A stretch of 64,000 nucleotides of DNA from NCBI GenBank assembly GCA_963787835.1, contig CAWBEI010000005.1, forward strand, positions 224,001 to 288,000. Reading direction: 5' to 3'. The notes beneath the pieces are model-generated. The model worked only from the letters and a program-made list of their open reading frames with translations. It did not search any database and was not told where the DNA came from. The position numbers were made by a program, and so were the translations under genes. The DNA is from Ignavibacteriota bacterium (GTDB lineage: Bacteria; Bacteroidota; Ignavibacteria; Palsa-1295). The stretch's first letter is position 1, and each line of letters opens with the position of its first letter. This document shows, one piece after another, positions 13,666 through 19,427 of the stretch.

Positions 13666-14850
13666 ATGAAGAAGATCACTCCCCCAACACACATCGAAGC
13701 GCTCCATGCATACAAACCAGGCAAACCCATTGCCGAGGTCATGGCAGAATATGGTTTGACCGATGTGATCAAACTTGCATCGAACGAGAATCCGATCGGC
13801 CCATCGCCAAAAGCTGTCGAGGCAGCACGCCATGCGCTCGAAGATATGCACCATTATCCGAATGGCGGCCGATCGCTCAGGGAAGCAATTGCGCGTAAAT
13901 ATCACCTTTCTGTCGATGAAGTGATTGCGGGATCGGGAAGTGAGGGGGTCATGAATACTCTCATGCGTACCTTTCTTGAAAAAGGCGATGAAGTGTTGAC
14001 CAGTGAAGGTACCTTCTCGGGATTTTATGTCCTCGCTAACGCGATGGGCCTTCGTACGGTGATGGCTCCGCTCAGGAATTATGCTTATGATCTGGAAGCG
14101 ATGGCGCGCTGCATTAGCGAGAACACGAAACTTATTTATCTCGCAAACCCGAACAATCCGACGGGCAGTGTTTTTGGCAGAACGGAATTTGAAGCGTTCT
14201 ACCGGCAAGTTCCATCGGACGTCATCGTCTTATTAGATGAAGCTTATTATGACTTTGCCATTTTAGATGTGCCGGATTATTTTAGTTTGCTCGCCGATAT
14301 TCGCCCCAATGTGTTTACCCTTCGGACCTTTTCAAAATCCCATGGGCTGGCAGGCATTCGTATCGGATTTGGTACCGGATCCGAAGAGATGATCGCACCC
14401 ATGTTGAAGGTGAAGCTGCCGTTCGAGCCAAGCACTGCCGCGCAAGCTGCCGGTATCGCGGCATTAGATGACGATGAATTCCTTCATCGCACTATTGAAA
14501 CGAACCAAATTGGCAAACAGTATTTTCAGGAAGCGTTCGAGAAGCTTGGAGTGGAATATGTCGATACGGCCGCGAATTTCTTTTTACTTCCTATCGGCAC
14601 TGCGGCTCAATCGCATCTTTTTGTGATCGAGATGGAACGTCGAGGCATTATTGTTCGCCCGCTCGATGGTTCTGGTATGCATACCGGTGTCCGAATTTCC
14701 ATTGGGACGATGGAAGAGAACGAACGTGCTATTGAGGCAATGAAGAAAATACTTCCAGCGCTTGGTATTTCAACGAATGGGGCTTTGCATTCCTCCGTTG
14801 AAGGTGCTTCATTTCCGGTGATGGTTGGCGAGGGATCAAACCGTGCCTGA
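13666..14850 (+). CDS. hisC: Histidinol-phosphate aminotransferase
   Basis: YKPGKP, KLASNENP, NPNNPTG, DEAY, RTFSKSHGLAGIRIG. Confidence 0.93.
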   Translation: MKKITPPTHIEALHAYKPGKPIAEVMAEYGLTDVIKLASNENPIGPSPKAVEAARHALEDMHHYPNGGRSLREAIARKYHLSVDEVIAGSGSEGVMNTLMRTFLEKGDEVLTSEGTFSGFYVLANAMGLRTVMAPLRNYAYDLEAMARCISENTKLIYLANPNNPTGSVFGRTEFEAFYRQVPSDVIVLLDEAYYDFAILDVPDYFSLLADIRPNVFTLRTFSKSHGLAGIRIGFGTGSEEMIAPMLKVKLPFEPSTAAQAAGIAALDDDEFLHRTIETNQIGKQYFQEAFEKLGVEYVDTAANFFLLPIGTAAQSHLFVIEMERRGIIVRPLDGSGMHTGVRISIGTMEENERAIEAMKKILPALGISTNGALHSSVEGASFPVMVGEGSNRA

Positions 14851-15748
14851 CGAATCTACCGATTATCTCCGCCCGGAGATCGCATCCGGTCTCGGCTCGA
14901 TGGAACTTGTTGCCAAATTCGTGGTGGAGGGATTCATCACCGGTCTGCACAAATCGCCGTATCATGGTTTTTCGGTGGAGTTTGCCGAGCACCGTCCGTA
15001 TTTACCCGGTGATGCCATTCGCAACATTGATTGGAAGCTGTTCGCGCGCACAGACCGCCATTACATCAAGCAATACGAGGAGGAGACCAATCTCAAGGCG
15101 CATATTATCATTGACGCCTCGCGCTCGATGAATTACACGAGCGACCCCAAGCGCATCACGAAATACAAATATGCAACCATGCTCGCTGCGGCACTCGCGT
15201 ATATGCTGATGCGTCAGCAGGATGCGGTTGGTCTTGCTATTTTCGATGAAGAACTTCGTACCTTCATGCCCGCGCGTCTAAAGCAAAGTTATTTGCGCGA
15301 AATGCTGCGGGTGCTGCAAACGACTGAACCATCGCACGCCACGCGAACGGAAACCGCGCTTCGCCGCGTAGCCGAACGCCTAACGCGTCGCGGACTTGTT
15401 ATCGTTATCAGTGATTTCTTAGACGAGCCAGACCAAATAAAGCTCCCGCTTTCGCTCATGCAACATGCGGGGCACGAAGTCATTGCATTCCAAGTACTCG
15501 ATCCCGCCGAGCGGACGCTCGAACTTGACAGCGCCGATGCAACCATTGTTGATATCGAAACCGGCGAGCAAATTCGCACGCAGCCATATCAGATGCAGGC
15601 GAGCTATCAGAAGGCAGTAGAGACATTTCTCGGAACCTTGAAAGATTCACTCATTGCAGAGGGCATTGATTACCTGCTTCTCGAAACGACCACACCCTTC
15701 GACCGAGCACTGCTCGAATATCTGCACAAGCGGCAGTTGATGGGATGA
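14843..15748 (+). CDS. DUF58 domain protein (MoxR/vWA-associated)
   Basis: GLHKSPYHGFSVEFAEHRPY.PGD.IRNIDWK, YEEETN, ISDF; GTG start overlaps the hisC stop (start uncertain). Confidence 0.93.
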   Translation: MPDESTDYLRPEIASGLGSMELVAKFVVEGFITGLHKSPYHGFSVEFAEHRPYLPGDAIRNIDWKLFARTDRHYIKQYEEETNLKAHIIIDASRSMNYTSDPKRITKYKYATMLAAALAYMLMRQQDAVGLAIFDEELRTFMPARLKQSYLREMLRVLQTTEPSHATRTETALRRVAERLTRRGLVIVISDFLDEPDQIKLPLSLMQHAGHEVIAFQVLDPAERTLELDSADATIVDIETGEQIRTQPYQMQASYQKAVETFLGTLKDSLIAEGIDYLLLETTTPFDRALLEYLHKRQLMG

Positions 15749-15752
15749 ATCA

Positions 15753-15806
15753 GAACCAGGATTACGCGGATTTTAGCGGATTACGCGGATGGATTTTGGC
15801 GGATTG
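15753..15806. repeat. GAACCAGGATT-(N4-5GGATT)n nonamer-type repeat
   Basis: ggattacgc ggattttagc ggattacgc ggat ggattttggc ggatt; related array at 53511. Confidence 0.7.
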
Positions 15807-15808
15807 GG

Positions 15809-16171
15809 TCAGAGTTTCATGAGTCCCGTCACAATGGTTAGTGCTGAATCAACTTTGGCCATCGTAGATTCGGTGAGTGAACCATAGTGCCTGAGGATTC
15901 GGCTCTTATCTACAGAACGAATTTGCAAGAGCATGATTCTGGAATCTTTCGTGAGACCGCCTTCGGGCGCTTTGATTTGCACCTCGATCGGAAGGTCAAA
16001 ATCGAGCGGCGTGCTTGTGATTGCCGCTATCATCACCGTATTATAGTTACTATTGATGATCTCTGGCGAGAGGACGAGCGCGGGACGAACTCCGGCTTGT
16101 TCGTGCCCTTTTACTGGGTCGAGGACTACGCGAACGATGTCGCCGCGGCGCAGGCTGGTTGGATTTTTCAT
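15809..16171 (-). CDS. mazF: Type II TA toxin, PemK/MazF family endoribonuclease
   Basis: RRGDIVRVVLDPVKGHEQAGVRPALVLS, QIRSVDKSRI. Confidence 0.95.
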   Translation of the reverse strand: MKNPTSLRRGDIVRVVLDPVKGHEQAGVRPALVLSPEIINSNYNTVMIAAITSTPLDFDLPIEVQIKAPEGGLTKDSRIMLLQIRSVDKSRILRHYGSLTESTMAKVDSALTIVTGLMKL

Positions 16172-16400
16172 AGACTTCTTCTTCTAAAGGATACCATGCT
16201 TTCGATTCCTGGAGATATAAGTCATTCACGAGCGGCGCGCCGGCAATGAGGGCTGCGCGGATTTTTTCCCGAGCACTTTCGGCAAGATAATTCCGCATTA
16301 ACCCTGAAAGTATAAGGCTGCGGCTTCCGGACTCGACCGCATCCTCGAACGCATTTAACGTCCGCTCGTCAATGGAATATGTTCGTTTTTTGAGATGCAT
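16050..16400 (-). CDS. Putative antitoxin (ribbon-helix-helix-like) for MazF
   Basis: Directly upstream of the toxin; KKRTYSID...RS.ILS.LMRNYL RHH pattern; acidic EEEVYE segment. Confidence 0.75.
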   Translation of the reverse strand: MHLKKRTYSIDERTLNAFEDAVESGSRSLILSGLMRNYLAESAREKIRAALIAGAPLVNDLYLQESKAWYPLEEEVYEKSNQPAPRRHRSRSPRPSKRARTSRSSSRARPLARDHQ

Positions 16401-16452
16401 AAGATTCTCCTTTGGGAATACTAACAGGAATACGATGAGTGTTTGTTCCGCC

Positions 16453-16500
16453 AGCCGCGCGCCACTGGCATGTCAGCACAAGTGGCAGTTGATGGGGTAG
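16453..16500 (+). repeat. Displaced copy 2 of the DUF58 3' end (att-like direct repeat)
   Basis: agc cgc gcg cca ctg gca tgt cag cac aag tgg cag ttg atg ggg tag versus gene gac cga gca ctg ctc gaa tat ctg cac aag cgg cag ttg atg gga tga. Confidence 0.8.
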
Positions 16501-16502
16501 AG

Positions 16503-16919
16503 TTATATCGTTCTGAGAAGTGCCTGGAATCCGGCTTGTTCGAAGTGATGGTCGAACGTTAGTGCCTCCGCGATTTTTCGTTCTCGCATGATGACGAATG
16601 AGGCGCAGTCAACAAGAGACCACGATTGGTCCGCTGCTCGCTCATAAAGTGCGATGGCGGCGGAAAGCAGTGTAGAGGTTATAGGAAGGATAGTGACGAA
16701 TGGATTTTGGTGCAGATCCTTCCAAGTTCCAATGGCCTGGCGGCGAGCTATTTCGCCACTGCGAGAAAAATGCGATAAGAATTCGACCAGTACAAGCTCA
16801 GTTGTCACGACTATCGTATCTGAGAGGAGCGATGCGGCATTCATTGCAGCCGGATGAAGCCGGTCGCGGGGAACTTGGAGCGCGACCAGATACGTGGTAT
16901 CCGCAAAAACTTCTTTCAC
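16503..16919 (-). CDS. vapC: Type II TA toxin, PIN/VapC family
   Basis: VFADTTYLVAL, VLVEFL, WSLVDCASF, ALTFDHHFEQAGF; GTG start overlaps the antitoxin TGA. Confidence 0.93.
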   Translation of the reverse strand: MKEVFADTTYLVALQVPRDRLHPAAMNAASLLSDTIVVTTELVLVEFLSHFSRSGEIARRQAIGTWKDLHQNPFVTILPITSTLLSAAIALYERAADQSWSLVDCASFVIMRERKIAEALTFDHHFEQAGFQALLRTI

Positions 16920-17128
16920 TCGTGGCCGAGGGATTCGCTGCCCAAACAATAGTCACTTTCGCGGAGCCTTCTGGAAAGATCGTCTTGTACATCCGGCGGA
17001 ATGAGCCGTCCCCGCTCTGCGATCCGATGAAACAGGTCAACAAGCGATCCTTTGGATTCTTGCTGTCCTGCGCGCTTCGCTGAGGGGCGGCGTGGCATGA
17101 CTTTCTTAGATGCCGTCTTCGTGCTCAT
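16916..17128 (-). CDS. Putative antitoxin for the PIN toxin
   Basis: 70 aa from ATG 17128 (MSTKTASKK...), GTGA-coupled to the PIN gene. Confidence 0.7.
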   Translation of the reverse strand: MSTKTASKKVMPRRPSAKRAGQQESKGSLVDLFHRIAERGRLIPPDVQDDLSRRLRESDYCLGSESLGHE

Positions 17129-17161
17129 AACACATACAACACAACCGCGAAATCTTCGTTT

Positions 17162-17224
17162 CCCTTCGACTGTGCACGCCGCGGCGGGCTGGAATATCTG
17201 CACAAGCGGCAGTGGATGGGGTGA
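17162..17224 (+). repeat. Displaced copy 3 of the DUF58 3' end (att-like direct repeat)
   Basis: cccttcgac...gaatatctgcacaagcggcagtggatggggtga versus gene cccttcgac...gaatatctgcacaagcggcagttgatgggatga. Confidence 0.88.
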
Positions 17225-17274
17225 ACGGGCGTTAATAATTCTCTGTTTAAACTCGATGTCCATTTAACACTCTA

Positions 17275-17532
17275 ATGAAGAAAATGATGAAACAATATTT
17301 GGTTCTCATCTTGGCATCATTCATGTTCCTCACTTCGCCCGCCATTGCAACGAAGCACCCACGCAAAACATCGGAACATCGATCTAAATTACCAAAGGAG
17401 CCTAAGACTCCGCGCCCTAAAAAGTACCATGATCCTGGAAAGTCCGAGGGTGTCCATGGTCATACGGGCCCTGATGGCCGTTGGCATAAAGATTACCATC
17501 GATCTCCTCGTGGAACTGCTCAGCATAATTAG
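17275..17532 (+). CDS. Small secreted basic His/Lys-rich protein
   Basis: Signal peptide AIA-T, then K/R/H-rich mature part with VHGHTGPDGRWHKDYHRSP. Confidence 0.65.
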   Translation: MKKMMKQYLVLILASFMFLTSPAIATKHPRKTSEHRSKLPKEPKTPRPKKYHDPGKSEGVHGHTGPDGRWHKDYHRSPRGTAQHN

Positions 17533-17564
17533 TGACCAACTAAATAGGTACTTTCAATTAAATA

Positions 17565-18098
17565 ATGCCAGATCTAAAAGTAATTGGTTCTAATGTTGAA
17601 GATTATGGAAACTTCAACGAGCGAATCGCTCGATGGGATGCTTATCGCATCAATTTCTTATCCTTTATTATTAATCTAATTTTTACCCTTACTGGAGGAA
17701 GCTTCTGGATTTGGTATCAGGTCCTCAAAGATGACCGAGTTGGAAATTATCATACATACTTTTTCATCTCCAGTATAATGCTTGGGTTATCGTTCATTTT
17801 AGGGATTCTTACAATGCTTAATAGGCTTAGAGATTTTAGGTTAACCGCAAAAACCATTAGGCTTGAGCAAAACCATGATGAAAAGATAAAGTTACGAAAT
17901 CCAGCAAATGATGACAATGTCAAAAATTTGATTGAGTCAAAAATAAAAGAATTAGATACCCTCATAATCCTACATAGGATATGGACAAGGAAAATTGGTA
18001 ACTTTACTTATTGTTTTTTTTACACTCAAGTAGGGTGCTTCGTAATAGGGAATGGGTTTATCGTTTTTGCAGTGATGAAGGCATATAATTTGTTTTAA
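17565..18098 (+). CDS. AT-rich hypothetical membrane protein (about 3 TM)
   Basis: 177 aa ORF with hydrophobic segments; visibly lower GC than the flanking core genes. Confidence 0.65.
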   Translation: MPDLKVIGSNVEDYGNFNERIARWDAYRINFLSFIINLIFTLTGGSFWIWYQVLKDDRVGNYHTYFFISSIMLGLSFILGILTMLNRLRDFRLTAKTIRLEQNHDEKIKLRNPANDDNVKNLIESKIKELDTLIILHRIWTRKIGNFTYCFFYTQVGCFVIGNGFIVFAVMKAYNLF

Positions 18099-18139: not shown

Positions 18140-19261
18140 CTACTCAAACAACCCTACCATCAGCTTCTTGATCTCCTCCTCCGTATTATAAAAATGCGGA
18201 GAAACGCGGAGGCGTCCCTGGCGGAGGGAGATAATAATGTTTTGCTTATGCAATCGCTCGAATACTTTTTCCGCATCGGGAAAATTGAAGGAAACGATTC
18301 CCGCGTGTTCTCGCTCGTCTTTGGGAGTAATAACTTCCAATCCGCGCTGCTCTAATCTATTGATGAGATAGCCAGAAAGATCGAGCACATTGTGCTCAAT
18401 TTCTTTCAGTCCATATTCAAAGAAGAACTTTAGCGAGGCATTTAGCGCAGTGATGCCTGCGAAATTTAGCGTGCCATTTTCGAAGCGGGCAGCGCCGGAG
18501 CGGAGTTCGTCAGGACGCAGTGTGAAATCGAAGGGATTCTCAATGCTCGTCCATCCCAGTGAGGCTTGGTGAATGCGTTCGATGGCGCGGTCGCCGGCGT
18601 ATATGAATGCTACGCCAGTATCTGCCATCATCCATTTATGCGAGCCGTTAGAGAGAAAATCTATGTTGTCGCGCTCGACATCGATCGAGCAATGGGGAAG
18701 TGATTGTATTGTATCGACAGCAAAGAGAATATCGCGTTCGCGACAGAGCTTTCCGATGGATGTGAGGTCAGCTTTGGCTCCCGTCGCAAATTGCACATGG
18801 CTGAGCGCGACAAGCTTAGTTCTTGAGGTCAGATGGTCGGCAACATCTTGCGGGGTGACTTTGAAGTGTTTTGTGGGAATTATGTCAACTTCGACACCCT
18901 GCGTTCGCAGATTCAAGAAAGGATACACGTTTGCAGGAAATTCCAGATCGTTCAGCAACACGCGGTCGCCCTGTTTCCAATCGAGGCCTTGCGCTATAAT
19001 GTTGAGTCCATCGCTGGTATTAAGCACGAACGCCATCTGATCGGCGCGAGCGTGGATCATTTGCGCAAGCAGTTCCCGCGTTTCCTGAACGGTTTTCATG
19101 ATCCACGGATATGGCTCGATGCCTTTGAGAGCTCGTCGCGTTTGGTAGCGATCGACCGCATCGCGCACCCGGAACGAAAGCGGCGCAACTGCGGCATGAT
19201 TCATATAGACCATGCCACTCATGGTGTGCGGGAATTCCCGGCGAGCTTGATCCTTCGTCAT
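18140..19261 (-). CDS. Aminotransferase class V / cysteine desulfurase-like PLP enzyme
   Basis: YMNHAAVAP, NTSDG, EFPANVYP, GSHKW, RFENGT, RVSPHFYN; start reset to MTKDQARREFP. Confidence 0.92.
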   Translation of the reverse strand: MTKDQARREFPHTMSGMVYMNHAAVAPLSFRVRDAVDRYQTRRALKGIEPYPWIMKTVQETRELLAQMIHARADQMAFVLNTSDGLNIIAQGLDWKQGDRVLLNDLEFPANVYPFLNLRTQGVEVDIIPTKHFKVTPQDVADHLTSRTKLVALSHVQFATGAKADLTSIGKLCRERDILFAVDTIQSLPHCSIDVERDNIDFLSNGSHKWMMADTGVAFIYAGDRAIERIHQASLGWTSIENPFDFTLRPDELRSGAARFENGTLNFAGITALNASLKFFFEYGLKEIEHNVLDLSGYLINRLEQRGLEVITPKDEREHAGIVSFNFPDAEKVFERLHKQNIIISLRQGRLRVSPHFYNTEEEIKKLMVGLFE

Positions 19262-19281
19262 ACTGTTGAGCTTAATTTCAG

Positions 19282-19404
19282 TGTCATTGCGAGGAGAATT
19301 CAACGACCGGAGGGAGTTGGATTCGACGAAGCAATCTGTTGGGATATGCAAAGAGATTGCTTCGTCGGAATTGCTCCGCTCCGCAATTCCTCCTCGCAAT
19401 GACA
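19282..19404. repeat. Second TGTCATTGCGAGGAG...CTCCTCGCAATGACA palindromic element
   Basis: Same termini and internal GACGAAGCAATCT as the 6011 copy; intergenic between kdsB and the aminotransferase. Confidence 0.92.
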
Positions 19405-19427
19405 ATGATAACATTGTAGAATCGACA

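Follow-up and report, generated by a model that had tools for sequence, protein, structure and literature searches.

The window analysed here is a stretch of 64,000 nucleotides from the genome of an Ignavibacteriota bacterium (assembly GCA_963787835.1, contig CAWBEI010000005.1, positions 224,001 to 288,000), an uncultured soil bacterium with a genome of 3.57 Mb. This source genome is called G000 below; other G-numbers denote genomes of relatives, L-numbers fetched loci and C-numbers contigs. Our subject is a DUF58/VWA gene and the two toxin-antitoxin (TA) units that follow it, each of which is closed by a further copy of the 3' end of that gene. The gene lies at 14843..15748 on the forward strand, encodes 301 aa from a GTG at 14843 and matches Pfam DUF58 with an E value of 1.8e-52. 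Its last ~55 nt recur twice on the same strand, once behind a 752-bp MazEF-like unit and once behind a 724-bp VapBC-like unit. The three copies share one register (15712-15749, 16464-16501 and 17188-17225), with offsets of 752 and 724 nt between them, and the two downstream copies are 76% and 92% identical to the gene end. We use the term relic for such a stranded copy of a gene end, and count junction positions in nucleotides back from the stop codon. Relic 1 (16455..16500, forward strand) is a displaced DUF58 tail that is partly decayed. Relic 2 (17162..17224, forward strand), likewise a displaced tail, begins at -54 and contains a 16-nt GC-rich palindrome (17174..17189, forward strand), which replaces 7 nt of the gene (+9 nt). 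The extra codons of relic 2 ('RRGG') are this palindrome, a member of a dispersed family, and not sequence of an allele.

Unit 1 contains an intact mazF/PemK toxin gene of 120 aa (15809..16171, reverse strand), which matches PF02452 over positions 1-108 of 109 with an E value of 7e-30. Its predicted RHH/CopG-type antitoxin is a 116-aa open reading frame (ORF; 16050..16400, reverse strand) overlapping the mazF start. The first 89 aa of this partner, the part scanned, gave no Pfam match and an ESM Atlas lead to CopG/YdcD-like proteins (0.93-0.94); a homologue precedes MazF in G005 and G012. In unit 2, an intact PIN (VapC-like) toxin gene of 139 aa (16503..16922, reverse strand; PF01850, E value 4e-10) is preceded by a 70-aa ORF (16916..17128, reverse strand), named by neither Pfam nor ESM Atlas and labelled as the predicted antitoxin by position only. 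Judged by their sequences, both units match type II TA pairs, with PemK and PIN above the Pfam cut-offs and small, co-oriented, overlapping partners upstream. The expected single antisense TA pair in each interval was thus borne out by Pfam for both toxins, while for the unit 2 antitoxin it depends on gene position.

In a genome-wide scan with a 37-mer core of the tail, the three copies were recovered at 0, 3 and 9 mismatches and the next best place in the genome had 12. The tail motif is therefore not a dispersed repeat, and such an origin was rejected; the same-strand recurrence originally described was confirmed as three in-register copies of a motif found nowhere else in the genome. All three junctions were bridged, with letters unchanged, by short-read contigs of low-depth soil runs, although these runs belong to one study, possibly that of the source sample, and are not independent. 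Taken together with equivalent units in independent assemblies, this argues that misassembly is not the explanation.

In order to survey the genome for similar arrangements, the last 60 nt of mechanically called ORFs (3169, fewer after edge and length filters) were aligned to the 2 kb downstream. Outside long same-strand ORFs, 19 copies scoring at least 40 were obtained, against 3 when tails were compared with upstream sequence and 2 when gene middles were compared with downstream sequence. A comparison of gene heads with upstream sequence gave 8 copies, some of which are real head duplications. The affected genes, named mostly from reading of their sequences, include holA, prs, purB, nrdJ, a DEAD-box helicase gene, the gene of a B12-binding mutase subunit (mcmC), an ABC permease gene, a glycosyltransferase gene, msrB and ruvX. 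Altogether about 20 unrelated genes are affected, at heads as well as tails, so that a special role of DUF58 or of 3' ends is not supported. Duplicated heads that include the ribosome-binding region, with TA cargo lying upstream of the intact gene, were found in G000 at C2:1764301-1765112, C3:173403-174207 and C3:48961-49390, and at L237 and L275. The head and tail scan, the palindrome count and the TA-locus control below cover contig C2 up to its last ~75 kb (C2:1843500-1918476). That segment has ~70% GC against 50% elsewhere and is probably contamination or a chimeric join; an msrB relic lies near its boundary.

The units are mostly 500-1100 nt long. At 20 sites, hand-picked from repeat scans after their ORFs had been seen, TA-family Pfam matches occurred at 16, a share biased by that choice. 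The families, some below the curated cut-off, comprise ParE/RelE, HicAB, HigB, PIN, PIN_3, PemK, BrnT, DUF433/DUF5615, DUF2283 and Gp49/antidote. Non-TA cargo is carried by four of the 20 and also by one tRNA site, where it is a GIY-YIG gene, so that the units are not 'TA-only' as had been proposed. Conversely, among 55 TA loci of six families, 11 have a duplicated gene end (10 of 54 without the PIN gene of the window, which was added to the list by hand), compared with 13 of 595 other small ORFs. By our assignment, 7 of these 13 control cases are TA genes of other families. The association of duplicated gene ends with TA pairs is thus found genome-wide, in a search of the kind that the original prediction had proposed. 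In relatives, 18 loci of other PIN genes were fetched; a duplicated gene end bounds 3 of them (a tail in two, a head in one), and a duplicated terminator-like hairpin bounds 1. Another direct repeat, a copy of a dispersed repeat, bounds 9 of the 55 TA loci and 31 of the 595 controls, examples in G000 being C4:405142-405848, C2:920612-921430, C5:149537-150474 and C2:1772621-1773666. The insertion logic seen at gene ends may use dispersed repeats as anchors in the same way.

Are the relics former coding sequence? The two in the window are decayed and by themselves carry little third-position signal, with 4 of 9 and 3 of 6 mismatches synonymous. The synonymous differences noted between the copies are therefore weak evidence there, and became clear on pooling sites. 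In strict ungapped segments of 25 non-DUF58 relics, mismatches at codon positions 1, 2 and 3 numbered 15, 13 and 70, of which 68 were synonymous and 30 non-synonymous (binomial p 1.6e-14 for 70 of 98 at position 3). For 8 DUF58 relics the counts were 5, 3 and 11 (p 0.03 for 11 of 19). Since some relics are common to several genomes, these p-values overstate the case. The bias argues that both copies were once under coding selection, as a dead local duplicate would drift evenly. By this codon-position pattern the relics are displaced former coding alleles of gene ends, as originally suggested.

We compared the flanks of the affected genes in 15 genomes of the genus, over 1.5 kb per gene and up to 7 kb at DUF58. 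Relics were present at DUF58 in 7 of 14 genomes (G009 has three), at nrdJ in 5 of 14, at purB, mcmC and the helicase gene in 3 of 14 each, at prs in 2 of 14, at holA in 1 of 15 and at the head of an LPG-synthase-like gene in 2 of 15, one of these 15 having almost no flank. At these sites some relatives have nothing, some have a unit, and others have different units or arrays. At DUF58 they carry 0, 1, 2 or 3 different units, which supports the accretion of arrays beside the gene claimed earlier. Eleven metagenome DUF58 loci on nine contigs, four of which (on two contigs) repeat G005 sequence, contributed further units and one two-unit array; three had no relic. Outside the genus, DUF58 relics were found in none of 15 same-family loci and none of 69 distant loci. 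The gene itself was matched in 61 of 61 genomes searched, with relatives' proteins starting MPDE; the named relatives, 89-97% identical, are metagenome-assembled genomes labelled Candidatus Kapaibacterium, Ignavibacteriae or Bacteroidetes. The G002 match (L005/L037) is 21 nt longer than those of relatives with the frame open, possibly through an in-frame mini-repeat insertion. At the nrdJ end of G014 (L110) there is a gene-less 121-nt unit, in which the relic follows 8 nt after the stop with the palindrome inside it.

The order of arrival could be read at three sites. At purB of G002 an extra unit adjoins the gene. The first relic shares a distinctive terminal extension with the functional purB gene of G000, and the same RelE/ParE unit comes after it as in G000, with a score of 149 against at most 64 for the G002 gene's own end. 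At DUF58 of G009, the first relic and the DNA that follows it match the functional end of G014 and its downstream DNA (score 132). At the LPG-synthase-like head, the G002 relic resembles the functional head allele of G000, with different cargo. In two tails and one head, then, one genome's relic matches another's functional end, which indicates that each incoming unit supplies a gene end of its own and that the resident end is pushed outward. New units thus enter gene-proximally. By the displacement logic seen at purB and at DUF58 of G009 and G014, the functional DUF58 tail of the window (15695..15748, forward strand) would have arrived with unit 1.

Directly after the DUF58 stop lies a copy of a dispersed intergenic repeat (15749..15805, forward strand) with dozens of genomic copies and blastn matches on most contigs; it is also present 3' of DUF58 in relatives with or without units, and is not unit-specific. 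This ~50-nt repeat is built of short, imperfect units; its copies frequently form inverted pairs with a distance of 100-600 nt and frequently come directly after a stop codon. Beyond relic 2 are two accessory ORFs of 85 and 177 aa (17275..18098, forward strand), AT-rich and without significant Pfam match, which are closed by no further relic and fill the remainder of the variable gap; this part is different in every relative examined. The variable region is bounded by a cysteine-desulfurase-like gene (18140..19261, reverse strand; Pfam Aminotran_5), a conserved convergent neighbour that lies downstream of DUF58 in most same-genus genomes and directly abuts it in several same-family genomes. 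In G010 (L042) a PIN gene is inserted between this gene and its upstream neighbour; the equivalent stretch of the window (19266-19420) contains nested inverted repeats. Rfam gave no matches at E<=1 between 15500 and 18300, and a scan for sigma-70 promoters and terminators was at chance (4 vs 3.6 and 2 vs 2.5). Elsewhere in G000, C2:1215586-1216330 holds a CRISPR-like array of 47-nt repeats ~77 nt apart.

Junction positions vary within one and the same gene: -51, -60 and -66 in purB, about -30 to -60 in nrdJ, about -36, -109 and -111 in mcmC, -60 and -77 in prs, and about -36, -50 and -54 in DUF58. Many relics begin in A-rich words, but by eye no consistent joint motif across genes was seen. 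The palindrome occurs, whole or half, in most DUF58 relics, where it replaces the 7 nt of the gene, and full or half versions are present in relics of G009, G006, G014, G005 and G003 and in metagenome loci. Its family is dispersed in G000, mostly intergenic, with 21 matches in one arm order and 2 in the other. Four DUF58 relics have the left palindrome half joined to gene-type sequence. These half palindromes can be interpreted as crossovers between a donor relic and a recipient functional tail, although correction or decay of the palindrome could also yield them. Between G000 and G009, the promoter-plus-relic end of unit 2 (the antitoxin start region and relic 2) is 82% identical over 122 nt while the PIN genes are 38% identical, which suggests that cargo may be exchanged behind a retained end. 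An origin of the -54 start by microhomology with a dispersed element whose start resembles the PFD codons is unsupported, as this element has 6 genomic copies with flanks unlike those of the relics. One metagenome relic (L140) does abut an element of this sort.

Neither a recombinase gene nor an attC-like fold was found within the units, in line with the original prediction. The genome has three PF00589 matches: XerD, which passes its cut-off, a protein resembling XerC, and the integrase of an island. A split resolvase is also present, and none of these is at a site; the best integron-integrase score was 128 bits, on XerD, against a cut-off of 265. DNA folding of 10 DUF58 relics gave z values from -1.08 to +1.36, and 16 other relics had a mean z of 0.24 against -0.03 for 60 random gene tails. 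An attC-like or other hairpin formed by the relic-end inverted repeat was rejected, as general folding, which has no attC-specific model, was no better than for shuffled sequence. Neither of the units in the window encoded an endonuclease, nor did any of 38 cargo ORFs scanned at the 20 sites, with the exception of the one tRNA site. There, at C5:66869-67310 of G000, a tRNA and a second copy of its 3' part enclose a small GIY-YIG gene; this dead copy is interrupted at the D-loop position by a dispersed 12-nt palindrome core. The site is the closest case to a mobile ORF seen here. Of the two routes of mobilisation first envisaged, recombination through short homology fits these data, whereas a trans-acting recombinase with a fixed boundary or att core does not, the junctions varying within a gene.

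Based on these observations, TA pairs were probably inserted here by homology-anchored recombination with a short or illegitimate second joint, using the cell's own machinery and no integrase. In a first step, incoming DNA of a relative would carry the gene body, its end and a small neighbouring cargo. It would pair through the gene body, and its far, non-homologous end would be joined into the resident gene 30-110 nt before the stop. This would be homology-facilitated illegitimate recombination in a duplicating instead of a deleting form, by which the gene gains the donor end and the resident end is stranded. A filled site would then offer two homology arms, body and relic, to any allele of that gene, so that further insertions in front of whatever follows the gene could build arrays without loss. 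Retention would be the third step. Loop-out would be rare with short relics, and addiction would select against loss, which would explain the excess of TA pairs although any small gene can ride. A broader proposal is that core-gene ends form a genome-wide, integrase-free landing system for TA pairs, in which the stranded relic turns the site into a self-perpetuating two-armed unit and integron-like arrays arise from RecA alone or from one trans-acting nuclease. We regard this as a tenable idea with somewhat less than an even chance of being correct.

Several observations weigh against insertion by homology-anchored recombination. The -54 start and the palindrome are common to most DUF58 relics although the cargos in front of them differ, and this would not be expected of random joints, so that a hot spot, or a promoter-plus-relic end retained during cargo exchange, must be assumed. 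We saw no insertion event as such, and no donor allele whose cassette end was still unjoined. No flanking repeat of any kind accompanies 35 of the 55 TA loci; deleting events, which leave no relic, may account for part of them. The relative G012 has MazEF at the DUF58 site without a relic, which also leaves the notion of self-mobile units unsupported. Homology-facilitated illegitimate recombination is described as rare, and the V. cholerae model in the available part of PMC5361080 replaces resident DNA; the duplicating form that we propose would be an extension of it. The genome has comEC and dprA, but these are near-universal (present in 10 and 11 of 14 controls), and their presence does not show competence. 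Ten Y1-transposase (Y1_Tnp) matches and five small GIY-YIG proteins in the genome could act in trans. The addiction step is weakened by the state of several unit toxins, which are broken by stops or splits, or gone (G006).

The relationships of the toxins give points on both sides. In favour of the proposed insertion, all 4 close relatives of MazF across 34 same-family genomes sit at the DUF58 end, and their identities are at odds with the host tree: G009 and G003 share 91% and G009 and G000 63%, yet G009 and G000 form one well-supported clade. (The G002 values in this comparison were disregarded, being offset by an in-frame insertion.) Against it, unit identity between G009 and G003 (79%) equals that of the gene body (78%), so that for MazF replacement cannot be separated from differential loss from an ancestral array. 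On these identities the MazF pattern would reflect one or the other at a single site. Close relatives of the PIN toxin (48-53%) are located at other sites, the G009 PIN gene at the DUF58 site being the distant one noted above. A tethering of unit 2 to the site is accordingly unsupported, its PIN family being spread over many sites.

The same anatomy could arise if a trans-acting nuclease or HUH transposase cut near gene ends or dispersed hairpins, and repair copied in a donor gene end with its cargo. We consider this unlikely, though not lightly dismissed. In its favour are the Y1_Tnp matches, the common start point and palindrome of DUF58 relics, and the tRNA site with its GIY-YIG gene and the same palindrome in the relic; fungal mitochondrial gene hybrids made by mobile ORFs have the same anatomy in the available part of PMC3630166, and the process would be a bacterial equivalent of those mobile ORFs. 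On the other hand, no TA unit examined encodes a nuclease, junctions differ in position and sequence, and relics fold no better than shuffled sequence. The palindrome, moreover, is lacking in some of the DUF58 relics, namely that of G007 and the second one of L146, and was unseen in the other protein-gene relics aligned.

It is improbable that units excise between tail copies as small circles of tail and TA pair and re-enter a gene end by a single RecA-type crossover. The product would be the same as that of homology-anchored insertion, the travelling form alone being different, and it is in keeping with circles that a relic's left part goes along with the cargo before it, and its right part with the cargo after it. 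The homology, however, is just 30-110 nt and mismatched, and the origin of the first joint is left unexplained. Among the joints listed for four low-depth contig sets there was neither a circle junction nor an empty site, a weak point since contigs drop rare forms.

Still less probable, and largely refuted, is that the units are cis-mobilizable elements (CIMEs), decayed remnants of integrative elements that target gene 3' ends site-specifically. Tandem arrays at a gene 3' end with the gene restored are a known pattern among ICEs (integrative and conjugative elements), IMEs (integrative and mobilizable elements) and CIMEs, according to the available part of PMC7563491, and many DUF58 relics do share one start point. 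About 20 targets would nevertheless need many integrases, and against this need stand three tyrosine recombinases and a split resolvase, none of which lies at a site. One gene can show several junctions, duplication extends to heads, and within the flanks compared in the 15 genus genomes no larger parent or integrase-coding element was seen at seven genes. A gene end duplicated locally in tandem, the dead spacer receiving its TA pair afterwards, is already contradicted and hardly credible, and so is misassembly: several relics do score best against their own genome's functional end (prs, holA, mcmC), but the third-position bias requires coding selection on both copies, some relics match functional alleles of other genomes, and the same units recur in independent assemblies with contigs bridging the junctions.

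If insertion is anchored in this way, landing at gene ends would be a general route for the integration of solitary chromosomal TA pairs. In a TA-rich genome, about a fifth of the TA loci (11 of 55) retain a footprint from which anchor, joint and order of arrival can be told, the last of these being readable across species. A searchable signature is suggested by this, namely a synonymously diverged copy of a gene end, 30-110 nt long, at a distance of 0.5-1 kb. Essential genes such as purB and prs would have their last codons swapped as a by-product of cargo acquisition. Solitary chromosomal type II TA pairs are described as single insertions at plastic loci beside conserved genes, and how they integrate is called unelucidated, in the available part of a review (PMC7167474); in comparison with those insertions, the loci described here keep a readable footprint of the event, and would give a testable answer to how TA pairs enter chromosomes. 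In the open-licence literature, at the level of titles and the starts of abstracts, we found no description of TA pairs with displaced gene ends.

Integron arrays consist of small cassettes, often reverse-oriented TA pairs, with the newest in first position, and depend on IntI and attC. Newest-first entry is also seen here (purB of G002 against G000, DUF58 of G009 against G014), in the absence of IntI and of an attC fold, and with a coding gene end as the repeat. Streptococcal CIMEs and tandem ICEs and IMEs, in the available part of PMC7563491, share integrase-less tandem units at a chromosomal target flanked by direct repeats. They differ in being derived from ICEs or IMEs, with att sites that an integrase recognises; the units described here have variable boundaries and many targets, and we found no element with a cognate integrase. 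The mobile-ORF hybrids of fungal mitochondria (Allomyces atp6; Glomus atp6, atp9, cox2 and nad3) likewise have an in-frame gene end of foreign origin, with the native one stranded beyond the cargo. Their cargo, in the available part of PMC3630166, is an endonuclease reported to have been shown to cause mobility, whereas the TA units here encode none, the GIY-YIG gene of the one tRNA site being the exception.

The type VI secretion system (T6SS) effector-immunity arrays of V. cholerae, as presented in the available part of PMC5361080, share the lack of an integrase, a conserved upstream anchor, entry of the new module in front and an outward shift of older material, and their sequential displacement is proposed to run by homology-facilitated illegitimate recombination. 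In those arrays the anchor is part of a polymorphic toxin locus, the old effector is replaced and immunity genes are left behind. The anchors in the present case are ordinary core genes (purB, prs, holA, nrdJ, DUF58); no material is lost, and it is the anchor's own 30-110-nt end that is stranded; heads are used as well as tails, the cargo is mostly type II TA pairs, and there are about 20 sites per genome. The features of the displacement models that recur in our data are the conserved anchor, the new module in front, the outward shift, the variable joint and the lack of a module recombinase. The probable route of TA pairs to these gene ends resembles the published displacement models.

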